This document shows positions 7,157-22,104 of a stretch of DNA of 39,756 bases, in pieces; position 1 is the stretch's first letter; every line of letters starts with the position of its first letter. The DNA comes from Candidatus Hermodarchaeota archaeon (GTDB lineage: Archaea; Asgardarchaeota; Lokiarchaeia; Sigyniarchaeales; SOKP01): assembly GCA_048885535.1 (NCBI GenBank), contig JBHLLO010000028.1, positions 1 through 39,756 of the forward strand, written 5' to 3'. The position numbers were made by a program, and so were the translations under genes. The notes below the pieces were generated by a model, which saw nothing but the letters and a program-made list of their open reading frames with translations, did no database searches and was not told the origin of the DNA.

Positions 7157-8527
7157 GTGATAAATTTGAATGAAAAAATTCCCCCAGAATTTGATGAGTT
7201 TGATATAGAAAATCTTTCTAAACCCAACGCGCTTCCAGAAGATATTGATTATGAAACTCATATCATCGCCACTTACACAGCAATGCTTCACAGAAAAATG
7301 GATGCTTTTTATATGATGCAAGCTGTTTGTATCGAGCAATCTACTGGCACTTTCGTTCCAGTTCCTGCTGAAACCCCGGAACAAAGAAGAAAACATGTAG
7401 CTAAAGTAATTGGATTGTGGAGAATTCCAGATTTTGAATATGAAGGAGTAGAAGATTTTTTTGGTAATCCTAAAATGCATCAATATGTAGTCCAAATAGC
7501 ATTTCCTTTAAACTTTAAGCCTCAATTTCCTATGCTTTTCACCACGATATATGGTAATATTTCGATGGGGGGTCCCCTCAAGATGGTTGATGTACGGTTT
7601 CCGAAGGCTTTCTTAAAAGAATTTAAGGGACCTAAATTTGGAGATGTTGGAATTAGGAAAATCTTAGGAGTTAAAGAAAGACCCTTATTGAATAACATGA
7701 TCAAACCCTGTGTTTACTCAGATCCTAAAATAGGAGCTGATTTAGCTTACCAAGCAGCTGTAGGGGGTTGTGATATTATTAAAGATGATGAGTTAATTGC
7801 TGATGTTGAGTTTAACCCCATTGTCGAGAGAGTAGTCGCATTCATGGAAGCATTAGATAAAGCGGATTCTGAAAAAGGTGAAAAAACGTTATATACGATA
7901 AATATTACTGACAGCGTTGATAGAATGTTTGAACTGGCCGATATTGTCCAAGAGCATGGGGCAAATGCTTTAATGATAAATCATATTTCAGTTGGCTATT
8001 CAGCAATGAGAAAAGTAGCTGAAGACCCTTCTGTAAAGGTCCCTATTTTAGGACACATGGATCTCGCAGGTGCTCTTTATCAAGATCCCTTAAGTGGAAT
8101 TTCAAGCCCTTTAATTCTTGGAAAGTTTGGAAGATTAGCTGGATGTGATACTATTGTACACCCTGCCCCTTATGGTAAAGCACCTACAAGTGCAGATAGA
8201 TTCAAAGAGACTGCCCGACAAATGGTAATGCCAATGCAGAACGCTCCACATATTAAAAGAACATTACCAATGCCCTCTGGAGGTATCACCCCTAGTTTAG
8301 TTGAAAAATGTGTTCAAGATTTAGGTACTAATATAATGATTGGAAGTGGTGGTGGAATCCATGCTCATCCTGAAGGACCTATAGCAGGGGCAAAAGCTTT
8401 TAGACAAGCTATTGACGCTGTTATGAAAGGGATACCCGTAAGAGATTACGCTAAGGAACACAAAGAATTAGGCGTAGCACTAGGTCTATTTGGTGTTGGT
8501 AAAAAAACTGAATTTACTTCTGTATAA
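7157..8527 (+). CDS. RuBisCO-like protein (form IV)
   Basis: EQSTGT, IYGN, GCDIIKDDE carbamylation motif, MPSGG and GGGIHAHPEG. KPCVY, LGHMD and HPAP replace the KPK, HRA and HxGT signatures of true carboxylases. Confidence 0.85.
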   Translation: MINLNEKIPPEFDEFDIENLSKPNALPEDIDYETHIIATYTAMLHRKMDAFYMMQAVCIEQSTGTFVPVPAETPEQRRKHVAKVIGLWRIPDFEYEGVEDFFGNPKMHQYVVQIAFPLNFKPQFPMLFTTIYGNISMGGPLKMVDVRFPKAFLKEFKGPKFGDVGIRKILGVKERPLLNNMIKPCVYSDPKIGADLAYQAAVGGCDIIKDDELIADVEFNPIVERVVAFMEALDKADSEKGEKTLYTINITDSVDRMFELADIVQEHGANALMINHISVGYSAMRKVAEDPSVKVPILGHMDLAGALYQDPLSGISSPLILGKFGRLAGCDTIVHPAPYGKAPTSADRFKETARQMVMPMQNAPHIKRTLPMPSGGITPSLVEKCVQDLGTNIMIGSGGGIHAHPEGPIAGAKAFRQAIDAVMKGIPVRDYAKEHKELGVALGLFGVGKKTEFTSV

Positions 8528-8553: not shown

Positions 8554-9522
8554 TTATTTATTCAAATCCTCCCAATATCTTTTTGAAACAATTCTAATTT
8601 TTGGGTTTAATTTTAAGGTTTTTAAATGTATAACGACTTCATTACCACTGAGATCAAGATATTCCAAGTTAGATAAATCATCAAGGAAACCTAAATTTCC
8701 TTGGTCCTTAATTTTATTATTTGATAAAATTAGATGAGTAAGTGATTTTAATATACCTAATTCTTTTATGTTTTGAATTTGGTTATTTGAGAGATCTAAT
8801 TTCTTAATAGCATTTAAATGTTCTAAACCCTCAATTTCAAGGATATTTGAGATATTATTATTCCATCCCCAAGGCGTCCCTTTAACCTCGTATTCTAAAT
8901 AATTTGATAAATCTAATTGCTCTACAAGGGCAGTTTGAGGATTTAATTCAAAAAATACATTAGGAAATTTTCCAGATAAATGTTTTATAATTAAAAAGTT
9001 TGAAATAATATCTGATATTTGTTTATGAGTGAAGGTTTCTATTTTGGATGTTTTAAATAACCTTTTTAAAACTTTTTTGTATTTCCTATTTTCATACCTT
9101 TTTTCTTCATTTAGATATTTGACTTTTTTTACCTTTTTTAACTCTTCTATCAAAATCCTTTTCGATTCTTCATTTCCCATTATTTCTAAAGTCTTTATAA
9201 CAGCAATGAGAAAACTATAAGGCATTTCATTTTTCACAATCCACTTAATAAGTTTTAATATTTTTTCGGGGTGATCCTTATAAACAAGATCTAATGCTAA
9301 TTTTCTAATCTCAGGATTAGAATCAGAAATTAACAAATTTTCAATGAATTGATATGTATATTTGTCATTAATCCCAATTTTTTTTAATATATCAATTGAT
9401 TCTAATCTTAATTTATTATCTTCAGAATTTTCTATTATTGATTCTAATAGAATTAAAGCAGTATTTTTATCCAGGACTTTCTGAGAGAATTTTTCATATA
9501 TTTCTTTTGGATTAAGAGACAT
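8554..9522 (-). CDS. HEAT-like N-terminus plus leucine-rich-repeat protein
   Basis: IENLLISDSNPEIRKLA HEAT-like repeat. LRRs KKLDLSNNQI, LTHLILSNNKI and LEYLDLSGNEV. Confidence 0.85.
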   Translation of the reverse strand: MSLNPKEIYEKFSQKVLDKNTALILLESIIENSEDNKLRLESIDILKKIGINDKYTYQFIENLLISDSNPEIRKLALDLVYKDHPEKILKLIKWIVKNEMPYSFLIAVIKTLEIMGNEESKRILIEELKKVKKVKYLNEEKRYENRKYKKVLKRLFKTSKIETFTHKQISDIISNFLIIKHLSGKFPNVFFELNPQTALVEQLDLSNYLEYEVKGTPWGWNNNISNILEIEGLEHLNAIKKLDLSNNQIQNIKELGILKSLTHLILSNNKIKDQGNLGFLDDLSNLEYLDLSGNEVVIHLKTLKLNPKIRIVSKRYWEDLNK

Positions 9523-17437: not shown

Positions 17438-18820
17438 TTAATAATAGATAGTTAATCCTTTGGTTTCTAGATTCTTCAAAGTCGAAGGAATTTCTTTTAA
17501 TTTGTTATCAGATAAATTTAACTCCTTTAAAGATGAAAGTGAATTTAAAGATTCAGGAAGACTTTCAAGTTTATTTCTTGAAAGATTTAGGTACTTCAGA
17601 TTTTTAAGAGATCCAATTGTATTTGGAATTGCAGTTAGATTATTATCACTCAAATTTAAAATCTCTAAATTAATTAATTCACCTATAACTTCCGGGATGT
17701 AGGATAACTCATTTCTTTCTATATCAAATACTATTAAATTGGAAAGAAACTTAACTGAATCAGGTATTGTTTGAAGTTGATTCCAACTTAAGTTTAGTTT
17801 TTGTAAAAGTATAAGATTTTTTATTGAGTTAGGTAATGTTTTAAGCTTATTGTCATGAAGATTTAATTCTTTAAGACTTTTTAAAGATCCTATATTTAAT
17901 GGCAACTCTTTTAATCGGTTTAACCTTAAATTTAAGGATTCTAAAGATTTTAGATTGCAAATTGAATTAGGCAATCTCTCAACTTCGTTCCTCCATAATG
18001 AAAGATCTTTTAGATAAGAAAGTGATCCAATCGATTCGGGAAGATCCTTTATATTATTTATGTTCAAATTAAGTACTTCTAGATATTTTAGTTTTTCTAT
18101 CCATTTAGGCACAGATGTAATTTGGTTATATCTTAAGATTAACATTATCAGGGAATCTAAGTATTGAACAGCTTCAGGAATTTCTATTAAGCCTTTAAAT
18201 TGAAAATTAATTTCTGTAACTTTACAATCCTCAACTTTGTATTTTAAACGCCAAAAGGATTTTTTTAAATAAATTAGTGAAAAGTAATTAATTAAAATTA
18301 AAGAAAGCTTATGAGTTTCAATAGAATTGATGTCATTATTTTCTATTAAGAGTTCAAAACCTATTCTCAAATCATTATCATACATTTGTTTTAATTCGCG
18401 AACTAGAACTAATTTAGAGGATAGATCATTTGCTTGGTCTAAATTTTTTATTATTATAATAAGGAATCGGAATATTGTATTTAAGCAGAGAGCAGATTGT
18501 TCATGTAATAAAGCCCATCTCAACGGTTTAATAGAAATATCTAAAAACTTTTCACCTAATATTTTAGCCGCATAATTTCTTATATTTTCGCTATGATCAG
18601 AGATAAGGAGATTTTCAAATAATTTAAAAATATCTTCTCTTATTATACCGATATCCTTAAAATCTTCCCCTATTATTTCTAAAAATATTATACTTTTAAG
18701 TCTCGTCTGAATATTATTACTATTTTCTATCAGAACTATAAGTTTATCAATTGCTGTTGATTTTTCTATTAATTCCTTACTAAAGTCCTCGTATATCTTA
18801 CTTGGGTCTAATTCTATCAT
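17438..18820 (-). CDS. HEAT-like N-terminus plus leucine-rich-repeat protein
   Basis: FENLLISDHSENIR followed by about ten 23-aa LxxLxLxxNxLxxLPxxI repeats. Confidence 0.9.
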   Translation of the reverse strand: MIELDPSKIYEDFSKELIEKSTAIDKLIVLIENSNNIQTRLKSIIFLEIIGEDFKDIGIIREDIFKLFENLLISDHSENIRNYAAKILGEKFLDISIKPLRWALLHEQSALCLNTIFRFLIIIIKNLDQANDLSSKLVLVRELKQMYDNDLRIGFELLIENNDINSIETHKLSLILINYFSLIYLKKSFWRLKYKVEDCKVTEINFQFKGLIEIPEAVQYLDSLIMLILRYNQITSVPKWIEKLKYLEVLNLNINNIKDLPESIGSLSYLKDLSLWRNEVERLPNSICNLKSLESLNLRLNRLKELPLNIGSLKSLKELNLHDNKLKTLPNSIKNLILLQKLNLSWNQLQTIPDSVKFLSNLIVFDIERNELSYIPEVIGELINLEILNLSDNNLTAIPNTIGSLKNLKYLNLSRNKLESLPESLNSLSSLKELNLSDNKLKEIPSTLKNLETKGLTIYY

Positions 18821-18839
18821 TTAAAAACCGGAGTTATAA

Positions 18840-20339
18840 CTATTTATAAATAATTAATCCATGTTTCTCTAAATTCCTTAAAAAATCTGGAATTTCAACT
18901 ATTAGATTAAAATTTAAATCCAAAATTCTGAGAGAAGATAACTTTGATAGGGATATAGGAAGTGATTTTAATTTATTCCCCCATAAACTCAATACTTCCA
19001 AAGATTTTAAGTCACCAAACCACTCAGGTAATTCCTCAAAATTATTCCAACTCAAATTTAGCTTTTTAAGTGATTTCAGTAATGTAAATGATTTAGGTAA
19101 AAAACTTAATTTATTATTCCACATTGTTAATTCTTCTAATTCCGTCAATAATCCAATAGACTTTGGAAGTGTTGTTAATTCGTTATCATACAAATGAAGG
19201 CTATTTAATGATTTCAACGAAGTAATCCAATTTGGAAGCTTCAATAGCTTATTTCCGCCCAATCCAATTCTTTTAATAGATTTTAGAGATTTAATCCATG
19301 ATGGTAATTTTTCTAATTGATTTAATCCTAACTCCAAATATTTTAGAGATGATAAACCTTTCAAGTTTATTTTAATATTATTTAATTTATTTCCATATAA
19401 GTCTAAAATTTCGAGTTTTCTAAGGCGATTTAATGTCTTTGGTAATACAGTTAGCTTATTTGACCTTAAATTTAAGATTTTAAGAGAGGTAAGATTTCCT
19501 ATGGTGTCTGGTATCAAACTCAATTGATTATAGCGCAAATTGAGATATAATAATGATTTTAAAGTCCCTATATTTCTAGGGAGCTCCTTTATTTTGTTAT
19601 AGCTTAGATCTAGATGCGAAATTAATGATAAGTTCTTAATAGACTCTGGAATAGTGGATAAACGGTTAAACTTTAAGTCAAGCCTCTTTAATTTGTTTAA
19701 TTTAAATATAAACTTAGGCATTTTTTTTAGAATATTCCATCCATATACATGACTGCTTACGTCAGACAAATCTAATTCCATAATTAACCCATTTCTTAAT
19801 TTATAACGTATTTTTCCGAATTTTTTTTCCAATTGGTTAATTATTAAGTAGTTTTTGAGGATCTCAGCAAGCTGTAGGCATGTAAAGTTTTTCATAGCTT
19901 TTATTTTAAATAAATTATGATAGTGTATTTTAAAAACATCATGTTGAATTATCTCTAATTTATCTATTATAACTCCTTTTGATTGGGGGTTATCAAGTTC
20001 ACCTAAAGTATCTGTTATTGTAAGTAGGCAACGTAAAGACTTTTCATGATTGAGCGCCCAAGTCATTGGTTTTAAAGCTTTATCTTTAAAATTTTTCCTC
20101 AATATTCTTAATGCATTAAACCTAATTATCTCATGATTGTCAGAGATTAATAGATTTTCTAGAAGGTTAAAAACACGGGGACTTTTAGCTGATATTTCCC
20201 CTAATATAATTATGCTTCTAACTCTATCCGTTAAACTTTCACTATTATCTATTAAGGAAATTAACTGAATAAGAGCAGTAGATTTATCTAGAACATTATT
20301 TAAATATTTTGTATAAATTTTTTCAGGGGATTTTTCCAT
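18840..20339 (-). CDS. HEAT-like N-terminus plus leucine-rich-repeat protein (tandem paralog)
   Basis: LENLLISDNHEIIR followed by about twelve 23-aa LRRs. Confidence 0.9.
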   Translation of the reverse strand: MEKSPEKIYTKYLNNVLDKSTALIQLISLIDNSESLTDRVRSIIILGEISAKSPRVFNLLENLLISDNHEIIRFNALRILRKNFKDKALKPMTWALNHEKSLRCLLTITDTLGELDNPQSKGVIIDKLEIIQHDVFKIHYHNLFKIKAMKNFTCLQLAEILKNYLIINQLEKKFGKIRYKLRNGLIMELDLSDVSSHVYGWNILKKMPKFIFKLNKLKRLDLKFNRLSTIPESIKNLSLISHLDLSYNKIKELPRNIGTLKSLLYLNLRYNQLSLIPDTIGNLTSLKILNLRSNKLTVLPKTLNRLRKLEILDLYGNKLNNIKINLKGLSSLKYLELGLNQLEKLPSWIKSLKSIKRIGLGGNKLLKLPNWITSLKSLNSLHLYDNELTTLPKSIGLLTELEELTMWNNKLSFLPKSFTLLKSLKKLNLSWNNFEELPEWFGDLKSLEVLSLWGNKLKSLPISLSKLSSLRILDLNFNLIVEIPDFLRNLEKHGLIIYK

Positions 20340-20535: not shown

Positions 20536-22104
20536 TTATATTCTTTCGATCATCATTCCACCTAATATTATAGGTCCACCAGTAGAATTATATATTTTTT
20601 CTGCTTTGTTTAATTTTGATTTACTTTCAGAATAAATTCTAAAAACTAGATCTCCTTCCTTGATTCTAGCACCTTGTTTTTTGAAGATTTCAACACCTGA
20701 ACTCTTAGAATGGGGACAACCTGCAGCTTTAGCAATTTGATTTATGATGGCATTATTGACCTCTGTTATGTGTCCCGCTTTTGTGGCAAAAAGGTCCTTA
20801 TTATAAGGTCCAAGCTCTATTTCTTCTGGTTTTATATTAGGATTTCCCCCTTGAGCCTTAATTATTTTTTGCATCTTTTTATAAGCTTTTCCTGACCTTA
20901 AAAGTTCTTTAGCTAATGCTTGACCCTTTCCTTTTTGCGCCTTGCCACCCATTTCAAGTAAAATACCTGCCAATTCAGTTGATTTTTCAATTAATGAGTT
21001 TGGACCCGCTGTATAATCTATTAACAAAGTTAAAGCTTCTTTTGCTTCTATTGCAGGACCAATTGCATGACCAATAGGTTGGTGAGCGAGAGTTAAGGCG
21101 CATTCAGCTTCTATTCCGACATTTTTAGCAATATCTTTAAAAAGATAGGCAAACTTCTTTCCAGCATCTATTGTTGGAAATTTTGTTCCAGTCCCAACAG
21201 GGATATCTAAAACTAAGTTTTTGACCCCAAGAGACAATTTTTTAGTAAGTATTGAAGGAATCATCAGTCCAATAGGGTCCATATGAAGAGGGCGTTCAAT
21301 TTCAATAAGAATATTATCAGCTGGTGAGGTATTCAAAGCTCCACCCCATATTATGCACCCATTCTCTTTGGCAACTATAGTTTTTAACTCTTCAGAATCA
21401 AATGCAACTGGTGCCAATACTTCCATTGAATCTGCTGTTCCTGATGGCGATGTGATTGCCCTAGTAGATGATTTTGGAATTGTTAATCCAGCGGCCGCAA
21501 CAATAGGAACTATAATAAGAGAGACCTTATTTCCTGGGACGCCCCCTTTCAGCAAGATTTACTAAGTGTAAATATCTGTACTGTGTTTATCGTAGACGTC
21601 CATTCCAAAGTAAAAAATATCTCCACTTCTTACCTCTGCTAAGGTCAGAGCAGTCATTTCCTCATTGTCCATTCCATTTATCTGGACTCCAGTTATAAAT
21701 GCAGCTAAATCAATTCGAGATAAAGATCCTGAAACCGCGTCGGAAATAATACTGTTAATTTCTTCATTATTTAACTTACTTCCTCTTATCTTTTTTTGTA
21801 TAAATTTAAAAGATTCAGGTGGATCTGCTGGTTTTACGGAAACAATTGCCCCATCCTTAAGCTCCTTTTTCTCTCTTAAAATATCTAAAAAAATACCTAT
21901 TTCACCAGGTTCTACAATGGAATTTGAATAATCTATTTGTATGATTGCGACCCAAAATTCAGTATCAATTGATTTTGATTCTTTACTTCGAATATATACA
22001 CGTTCGCCTGCTTTTTGACCAAGTTCTTGGGCATCTTTAATATTTAAAACAACATCCTTTGTATTACCTGTTTCGAAATTTATTTTTTTTACCTTGAGCT
22101 TCAT
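20536..22104 (-). CDS. deoA: AMP phosphorylase (thymidine phosphorylase family), 512 aa after removing a 30-nt intron; exons 22104-21578 and 21547-20536
   Basis: Two in-frame ORF pieces end in DKHST and resume at GGVPGNK. IPKSSTRAITSPSGTADSME, WGGALN, LVLDIPVG and QPIGHAIGPAIEA are intact. Confidence 0.9.
21548..21577 (-). other. Putative relaxed BHB/BHL-type mRNA intron, 30 nt, in AMP phosphorylase
   Basis: Minus strand reads CAGT-AC^A-GATATTTAC-ACTTA-GTAAATCTT-GCTG-AA^A-GGGGGCGTCC. Central helix CAGU/GCUG, 3-nt segments ACA and AAA, and an intron hairpin. Excision gives AGT ACA GGG GGC (S-T-G-G). Confidence 0.8.

Follow-up and report, generated by a model that had tools for sequence, protein, structure and literature searches.

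What is a stretch of 30 nt with two in-frame stop codons doing inside the phosphate-site motif of an archaeal AMP phosphorylase gene? The question is raised by contig JBHLLO010000028.1 (assembly GCA_048885535.1) of a Candidatus Hermodarchaeota archaeon assigned to the Lokiarchaeia, order Sigyniarchaeales, of which positions 1 to 39,756 were analysed (hereafter the window, i.e. the whole stretch of 39,756 nt). Our comparison suggests that the insert is very probably an archaeal EndA-type intron, i.e. a member of the bulge-helix-bulge (BHB) class in its relaxed bulge-helix-loop (BHL) form, lying in the coding region of the AMP phosphorylase of this Promethearchaeota (Lokiarchaeia-type Asgard) archaeon. 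A first-pass annotation made from the letters of the window had already proposed an intron at this place, and the proposal now gains support from the sharing of the site by 36 genomes, from their common architecture, and from a covarying helix and stem.

The AMP phosphorylase gene lies on the minus strand (22104..20536) and is interrupted by the 30 nt insert in frame. Translation of this strand reads ...GMDVYDKHST, followed by D-I-Y-T-stop-stop-I-L-L-K and then GGVPGNKVSL..., which bears out the stop-containing insert between DKHST and GGVPGNK that the annotation had described; the stops are a TAG at 21564-21562 followed by a TAA at 21561-21559. The insert can be placed at 21576-21547 (-) or, alternatively, at 21577-21548 (-), and both placements give the same product because an A flanks both of its ends. 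When the two stops are read as X, the read-through protein matches TIGR03327 (the NCBIfam model for AMP phosphorylase, curated cut-off 535 bits) with 572.8 bits over profile positions 1-500, while the separate halves reach 119.3 bits (positions 1-165) and 446.1 bits (positions 169-500). Its best solved relative is 4ga5_B. The gene is present as a single copy, with no other AMP phosphorylase match in the same genome, and the break point falls inside the invariant DKHSTGG motif. The parts of the interrupted gene are as follows:

21578..22104, minus strand: exon 1, beginning with the ATG at 22104 and running to AC, the first two bases of the Thr codon (canonical bulge cut), comprising the N-terminal region and the helical domain and ending ...DKHS(T); TIGR03327 positions 1-165, PF02885
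21580..21583, minus strand: 5' strand of the central helix H, CAGU, which is exon sequence (His third base and Ser codon)
21577..21579, minus strand: 3-nt bulge ACA with the predicted 5' splice site AC/A, the cut position following from the known BHB rule
21548..21577, minus strand: predicted intron of 30 nt (canonical cuts), with TAG and TAA in the frame of exon 1; covariance model 52.2 bits, E 1.4e-7
21554..21576, minus strand: intron hairpin h', a 9-position stem of 21576-21568 with 21562-21554 (8 pairs in the window) and a 5-nt loop at 21567-21563
21550..21553, minus strand: 3' strand of helix H, GCUG, which is intron sequence
21547..21549, minus strand: unpaired AAA with the predicted 3' splice site AA/A, the closing exon-exon helix being absent
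20536..21547, minus strand: exon 2, starting with the third base of the Thr codon, followed by GGVPGNK, and closing with the stop at 20538-20536, comprising the a/b and C-terminal domains; TIGR03327 positions 169-500, PF00591, PF07831

Is the insert a peculiarity of this gene, or is it shared? In a first draw of orthologue loci from the same genus, all 19 read DKHSTGG uninterrupted. Among 65 related loci from the Promethearchaeota, 55 show the motif, 43 of them uninterrupted and 12 with an insert at the same place. A census of the family (135 genomes) found the gene in 121, and 36 of these, including the window genome, carry stops or a frame break there, so that the comparison of orthologues put forward as a check in the first-pass annotation did find insertions at the same site (36/121). 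All 36 inserts were fetched, and each of them separates the Thr codon from the first Gly codon. They measure 29 nt (two genes), 30 nt (31 genes) or 31 nt (three genes), and since 29 and 31 are not multiples of three, five of the 36 would shift the frame unless removed. Judged from the DNA, excision of the 29, 30 or 31 nt joins DKHST to GGVPGNK in frame in every one of the 36 genes, as is found in all 43 uninterrupted loci. The carriers fall in 10 of the 13 genera of the family. No insert was found in the three other families of the same order (18 genomes with the gene), and no cultured member of the order was seen to carry the intron among those searched.

A covariance model built from 35 of the sequences gave 36 hits in the 135 genomes of the family, one per carrier and all inside the AMP phosphorylase gene. 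This gene was also the only significant site in the window genome (next matches at E 0.41 and 2.5), where blastn-short revealed no second copy of the insert, the best other match being 15 nt long. With a single site per genome, always in this gene, and no second copy, the insert is not a repeated mobile element, and we reject that reading. One genome of the family (G119) encodes AMP phosphorylase twice, on separate contigs (loci L104 and L123), and only one of these copies contains the 30-nt intron.

Evidence also comes from RNA structure. In the window, CAGU (21583-21580) pairs with GCUG (21553-21550) to form a 4-bp central helix, ACA (21579-21577) and AAA (21549-21547) are unpaired, and the intron stem has 8 pairs and one U.C mismatch in 9 positions below a 5-nt loop; helix, triplets and stem are thus all found where they had been drawn from the letters of the window. 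The counts across relatives given in this and the next paragraph refer, unless a different number is stated, to 35 aligned sequences, the 36th being omitted because its contig ends inside the stretch. Given 13 sequences and no prior hint, RNAalifold returned the 4-bp helix, the 3-nt bulge and a 9-pair stem, with 9 of 15 pairs compensatory, i.e. changed on both sides. The central helix is paired in 140/140 cells, and two of its four pairs show double changes; the third base of the His codon tracks its intron partner perfectly (UA in 26 sequences, CG in 9). The intron stem is paired in 97.1 % of cells, with changes on both sides in 8 of its 9 pairs, so that helix and stem together hold 10 pairs with double changes. 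When the partners were slid by 1-3 columns as a control, only 30-54 % of cells paired, and none of 500 shuffles reached the observed values, a count that does not amount to a probability because the sequences are kin.

The codons themselves point the same way. The Ser codon of the motif is AGY in 34/34 distinct intron-bearing genes vs 15/48 intron-less genes, the other 33 of which use UCN; together with the covariation of the His wobble base, this fixed Ser codon indicates that synonymous sites of the exon are held by RNA structure. The bulge reads ACA in 31 and ACU in 3 of the 34 genes. The first base of the 3' unpaired triplet is A in all 34, and its last base varies between A, U, C and G; with a cut after the second base of the bulge, the last base of the insert would become the free wobble base of the Thr codon.

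The exon side of the motif is less regular. The 5' bulge lies between H and the intron stem h', which close it, and the 3' triplet follows H with no adjacent exon-exon helix; because this outer helix is missing, the motif most likely belongs to the relaxed bulge-helix-loop or HBh' type and not to the strict form. The first-pass annotation had called the motif relaxed and BHL-like, with a distal helix that could form between the exons. The former part stands, as the central helix and the stem covary and the exon side next to them is unpaired. The distal pairing, GGACGUCU/GGGCGUCC, can be drawn at 8/8 positions of the window, 3 of them G-U, with its 3' arm ending at 21537, i.e. 2 bases beyond the start first given for the element. 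At these codons 77.2-77.5 % of cells are paired in intron-bearing genes vs 63.0 % in intron-less genes. Considering that no compensatory change was found in it and that its pairing is only slightly above that of intron-less genes, we leave the distal helix out of the motif.

The same data bear on the other explanations of the insert. One is that the gene is truly split and that its two products, polypeptides of about 180 and 335-339 residues, form an active enzyme together. The break does lie between two Pfam domains, and the window has an in-frame TTG three codons before GGVPGNK, opening an open reading frame (ORF) of 339 residues; such a TTG occurs in 21/34 intron-bearing genes. Its presence is explained otherwise, since the TTG belongs to the paired bases of the intron. 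Moreover, 13 of the 34 distinct genes lack any in-frame start codon from the last stop up to the GG codons; translation could begin only 3 to 41 codons into exon 2, and GGVPGNK would be lost in most of them. A split would also break the protein inside the invariant DKHSTGG, and it leaves unexplained the covarying helix of the His and Ser codons, the length limit of 29-31 nt and the fixed AGY Ser codon. We consider two functional polypeptides very unlikely, in agreement with the view of the first-pass annotation, which had judged such a split unlikely to work and is upheld by the 13 genes with no downstream start of their own.

Equally improbable in our view is translational bypass or another form of recoding, in which the hairpin would signal ribosomes to skip the approximately 30 nt or to read through the stops. 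Bypass loosely recalls gene 60 of phage T4. The hairpin does lie within the gap, and in several genes a stop directly follows the Thr codon (TAA, TAG or TGA as first codon of the insert, in the 29- and 31-nt forms). Nevertheless, the landing site offers no codon matching the take-off Thr codon, as the insert ends in AAA, AAU etc. before GGN, while read-through is impossible for the 29- and 31-nt forms and would elsewhere add 10 residues to the phosphate-site motif. The conserved 4-bp helix with three unpaired bases at each boundary is, on the other hand, exactly the geometry of the endonuclease.

A recent pseudogene, inactivated by the insertion in the window genome, is slightly less likely still. 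It would account for two in-frame stops in an essential motif, for the absence of the insert from the nearest relative of the window gene (92 % protein identity) and for a sole carrier among 38 genomes of the genus that have the gene. Against it, 36 genomes from 10 genera have retained the insert while both frames stay open: no stop occurs in the final 171 codons of exon 1 in 34/34 distinct full-length intron-bearing genes, and the open frame of exon 2 spans 1008 nt in 33 of them and 1011 nt in the remaining one. For exon 2, the median ratio of non-synonymous to synonymous substitution rates (dN/dS) is 0.080 among intron-bearing genes (395 of 528 pairs usable) vs 0.061 among intron-less genes (596 of 1128 pairs), and between the window gene and its nearest, intron-less relative dN is 0.034, dS 0.889 and the ratio 0.038. 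Both exons are under purifying selection, and the search for decay in relatives, by which the intron could have been refuted, found none (both frames open in 34/34, dN/dS about 0.08). Finally, the interrupted gene is the only AMP phosphorylase copy of the genome, and its partner genes are intact: on another contig (C51, 8822-11025) an intact RuBisCO large-subunit gene (290.5 bits) adjoins a gene for an e2b2-family isomerase. The pairing of RuBisCO and isomerase is the arrangement expected for the AMP salvage pathway. A second, weaker homologue of the RuBisCO large subunit (155.9 bits) lies in the window itself at 7157-8527 (+).

An artefact of assembly or binning can be dismissed almost entirely. 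The genome was assembled from a metagenome and consists of 112 contigs, yet contigs built independently in each of four runs carry the identical insert and a homologous insert occurs in 35 other assemblies. Contigs from 4/4 DNA runs (four samples of one sediment study) span the insert with 0 differences and 0 gaps, and the insert is therefore real DNA:

21040-21845: run X1, contig spans the insert
21032-22104: run X2, contig spans the insert
21040-22104: run X3, contig spans the insert
21247-21716: run X4, contig spans the insert

In runs X2 and X3, a contig of an approximately 90 %-identical relative departs from the window at 21576, exactly at the boundary of the insert, and runs on into the codons for Gly-Gly-Val-Pro, so that a relative lacking the intron is present in these sediment samples too.

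If the insert is an intron, can this organism remove it? The genome holds two EndA-domain paralogues, in ORFs of 200 and 205 residues, which map to the regions 30393-30617 of contig C6 and 55964-56212 of contig C1. The first, alpha-like paralogue is closest to the alpha chain of Aeropyrum pernix (3p1z_B, E 3e-35), keeps the Tyr/His/Lys region and aligns without gaps through the Crenarchaea-specific loop, with K-P-R opposite K44-P-R46 of A. pernix. The second, beta-like paralogue lacks the His, as expected for a structural subunit. We therefore predict from these alignments a two-subunit (alpha-beta)2 EndA with the broad-specificity loop; the first-pass annotation had asked for the subunit architecture, and its expectation of a broad-specificity enzyme agrees with two paralogues of which the catalytic one carries, by alignment, K-P-R in this loop. 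The Crenarchaea-specific loop and Lys44 confer cutting of relaxed motifs (PMC3241643), the EndA of Asgard archaea is described as (alpha-beta)2 with an L1 loop (PMC5829648), and two EndA paralogues were reported in 44/60 Asgard genomes in a preprint of 2026 (10.64898/2026.10.13.758758). A gene for the ligase RtcB is present (560.9 bits). On all contigs of the genome, ARAGORN called 34 tRNA genes and placed an intron, 7 to 54 nt long, in 23 of these; some of the calls look odd and are possibly over-calls. Introns in 23/34 calls suggest a splicing system in heavy use. This picture also fits the published, heavily interrupted tRNA genes of Asgard archaea.

On this basis, the removal of the intron may be pictured as follows. 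In the transcript, the CAGU of the exon pairs with the GCUG of the intron into the 4-bp helix, on which the 9-position hairpin of the intron stacks, leaving the predicted 5' site AC/A in the 3-nt bulge and the predicted 3' site AA/A in the unpaired stretch just past the helix. The (alpha-beta)2 EndA, with its loop for relaxed motifs, would cut both sites, and RtcB would ligate the exons, restoring ...DKHSTGGVPGNK... and an enzyme of 512 residues. Unspliced RNA would yield only a fragment of 180 residues.

How did the insert come to be so unevenly distributed? In a quick maximum-likelihood tree of 82 distinct genes, computed on exons only, the intron state changes at least 10 times, and 8 of these changes are forced by well-supported branches; a protein tree of 55 rows gives at least 7. 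Most major clades have intron-bearing genes at their base and enclose intron-less clades. The window gene is sister to an intron-less gene (support 99-100), and its intron is most like those of a neighbouring, mostly intron-bearing clade. Because no other copy of the intron could act as donor, we infer that one old intron was precisely removed many times or was passed between relatives by homologous exchange; the trees are unrooted, and gain and loss are not formally separated by them. In sliding windows near the site, the likeness of the window gene is 0.85-0.87 to intron-bearing genes vs 0.76-0.80 to its nearest relative; since these windows are only 90 nt long and include columns of the intron, no conclusion on recent recombination into the window genome is drawn from them. 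There are hints of recombination of AMP phosphorylase within the family. In the gene tree, the AMP phosphorylases of the genus to which the window genome belongs are interspersed with those of another genus, and in places exon 1 of the window gene resembles other relatives more than the one nearest to it overall.

Several points weigh against an intron and have to be set beside this evidence. Splicing itself is inferred, the intron being known here from DNA, and the related genomes that supply the covariation are non-independent samples. The missing outer exon-exon helix makes the 3' site non-canonical, and the distal helix shows, as said, no compensatory change. The window genome stands alone in its genus (1/38 genomes with the gene). 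Nor does the window sequence fold unusually well: a 91-nt fold of the window gives a minimum free energy of -18.4 kcal/mol and a z of -1.38, i.e. no better than shuffles (17/200 fold equally well), and the register of lowest energy differs slightly, with a 1-nt bulge instead of the 3-nt one. As the window sequence by itself is at chance level, the signal beyond chance comes from its relatives. The trees come from quick searches, and the gene behind them may recombine. Finally, we scanned the genome for elements with helix, bulges and stem that could be taken out so as to fuse two open frames (100 codons or more), and similar motifs were not in excess: 181 loci vs 178-201 for decoy bulge sizes on the first 10 contigs, 736 loci at the 3+3 geometry vs 730-779 for decoys on all contigs, and 94 vs 104-129 with strict structure, in a scan that is swamped by neighbouring genes and neither finds nor excludes further introns. 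With no such excess, the AMP phosphorylase insert would be the lone intron of an mRNA in this genome. The cbf5 gene of the genome is uninterrupted, and a Pfam scan of 33 ORFs of the window showed no other gene split by an insert.

A further proposal builds on the intron and goes beyond it. In the HAC1/XBP1 mRNAs of eukaryotes, the endonuclease IRE1 excises a short intron from the coding region at small stem-loops, a tRNA ligase (RtcB in animals) joins the ends, and the protein changes; the cutting enzyme is IRE1 and not the tRNA splicing endonuclease, and the reaction is a regulated stress switch. The AMP phosphorylase intron would be similar in that a short intron of a coding region would be handled by a protein endonuclease and a ligase, whereas our data show no regulation. 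It is a speculative and rather doubtful idea that the intron, whose stop codons end the reading of unspliced mRNA, serves as a post-transcriptional on-switch, by EndA/RtcB splicing, for the salvage of AMP towards RuBisCO, and so as an archaeal counterpart of HAC1/XBP1 among the nearest prokaryotic kin of eukaryotes; the many exact removals (at least 8 to 10 changes of state on the gene tree) would then point to loss via copies of spliced RNA or via exchange of alleles in Asgard archaea.

Which known introns does the AMP phosphorylase intron resemble? The closest precedent is the intron in the cbf5 pre-mRNA of Crenarchaeota, i.e. Desulfurococcales and Sulfolobales (Watanabe 2002; Yoshinari 2006; Yokobori 2009, PMC2738675). 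Both are short introns of the endonuclease type inside a coding region, the cbf5 motif is often relaxed, and the hosts of the cbf5 intron have a hetero-oligomeric splicing endonuclease, as is predicted for the window genome. The distribution of the cbf5 intron is likewise patchy and has been read as gain and loss. In contrast to cbf5, the AMP phosphorylase intron lies in the phosphate-site motif of a metabolic enzyme and in the Asgard phylum Promethearchaeota, and while splicing of cbf5 was shown experimentally, that of AMP phosphorylase is deduced from DNA. We therefore regard the two as probably belonging to the same class of mechanism, the present one in a new gene and a new lineage and with unusually clear comparative support.

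Non-canonical tRNA introns (BHL/HBh'; PMC3241643, PMC5829648) share the same 4-bp helix, the 3-nt bulge closed by an intron helix and the unpaired second site. The type of enzyme that processes them, an (alpha-beta)2 EndA with loop, is also found in the window genome, with the Lys and the Arg of the loop conserved. Unlike them, the substrate here would be an mRNA, with no tRNA body aiding recognition, and the exon strand of the helix consists of codons. EndA would likewise act on a messenger RNA as it does in the BHB intron of HVO_1309 of Haloferax volcanii (Schwarz 2020, PMC7714728), although that intron lies in the 5' untranslated region of a euryarchaeon with a homodimeric enzyme, whereas the AMP phosphorylase intron interrupts the reading frame. 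Protein-coding genes very rarely hold introns of this type. According to a statement of 2020, only one further archaeal BHB intron was known beyond those of tRNA and rRNA, i.e. that of the crenarchaeal cbf5 mRNA, to which the same study adds the haloarchaeal case in a 5' leader (PMC7714728). Our search of the full texts in a partial library returned neither a publication linking AMP phosphorylase with an intron nor one on a BHB intron in a coding region of Asgard archaea, and the crenarchaeal cbf5 intron was the one earlier coding-region case that it yielded.

Elsewhere in the window, two further observations were made. An in-frame TGA at 27614-27612 (-), between the ORFs 28031-27612 and 27596-26259, reads ...FPTDDCSI-TGA-ILGP... 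in an FAD/4Fe-4S protein resembling heterodisulfide reductase subunit A (HdrA), and it looks like a selenocysteine codon rather than a break of the gene; selenocysteine is known from that position of HdrA. The other concerns eukaryote-like signature proteins typical of Asgard genomes, all on the minus strand:

53-1105, 8554-9522 and 17438-20339, minus strand: a small GTPase (Arf/Roc/Ras type) and three leucine-rich-repeat proteins, two of them with HEAT repeats

What, then, does the interrupted AMP phosphorylase mean for these archaea? If it is spliced, it would bring to two the gene families in which a tRNA-type intron interrupts an mRNA, and would be the first such case from Asgard archaea. 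Gene-calling programs will present the 36 genes as broken or split, and as a result an intact AMP salvage/RuBisCO pathway will be undercounted in Lokiarchaeia-type genomes. The 37-nt natural substrate and its 35 natural variants would allow the Asgard (alpha-beta)2 EndA to be probed on a relaxed motif outside tRNA. Regarding the family as a whole, its AMP phosphorylase genes may preserve a succession of exact intron removals in the lineage nearest to eukaryotes.

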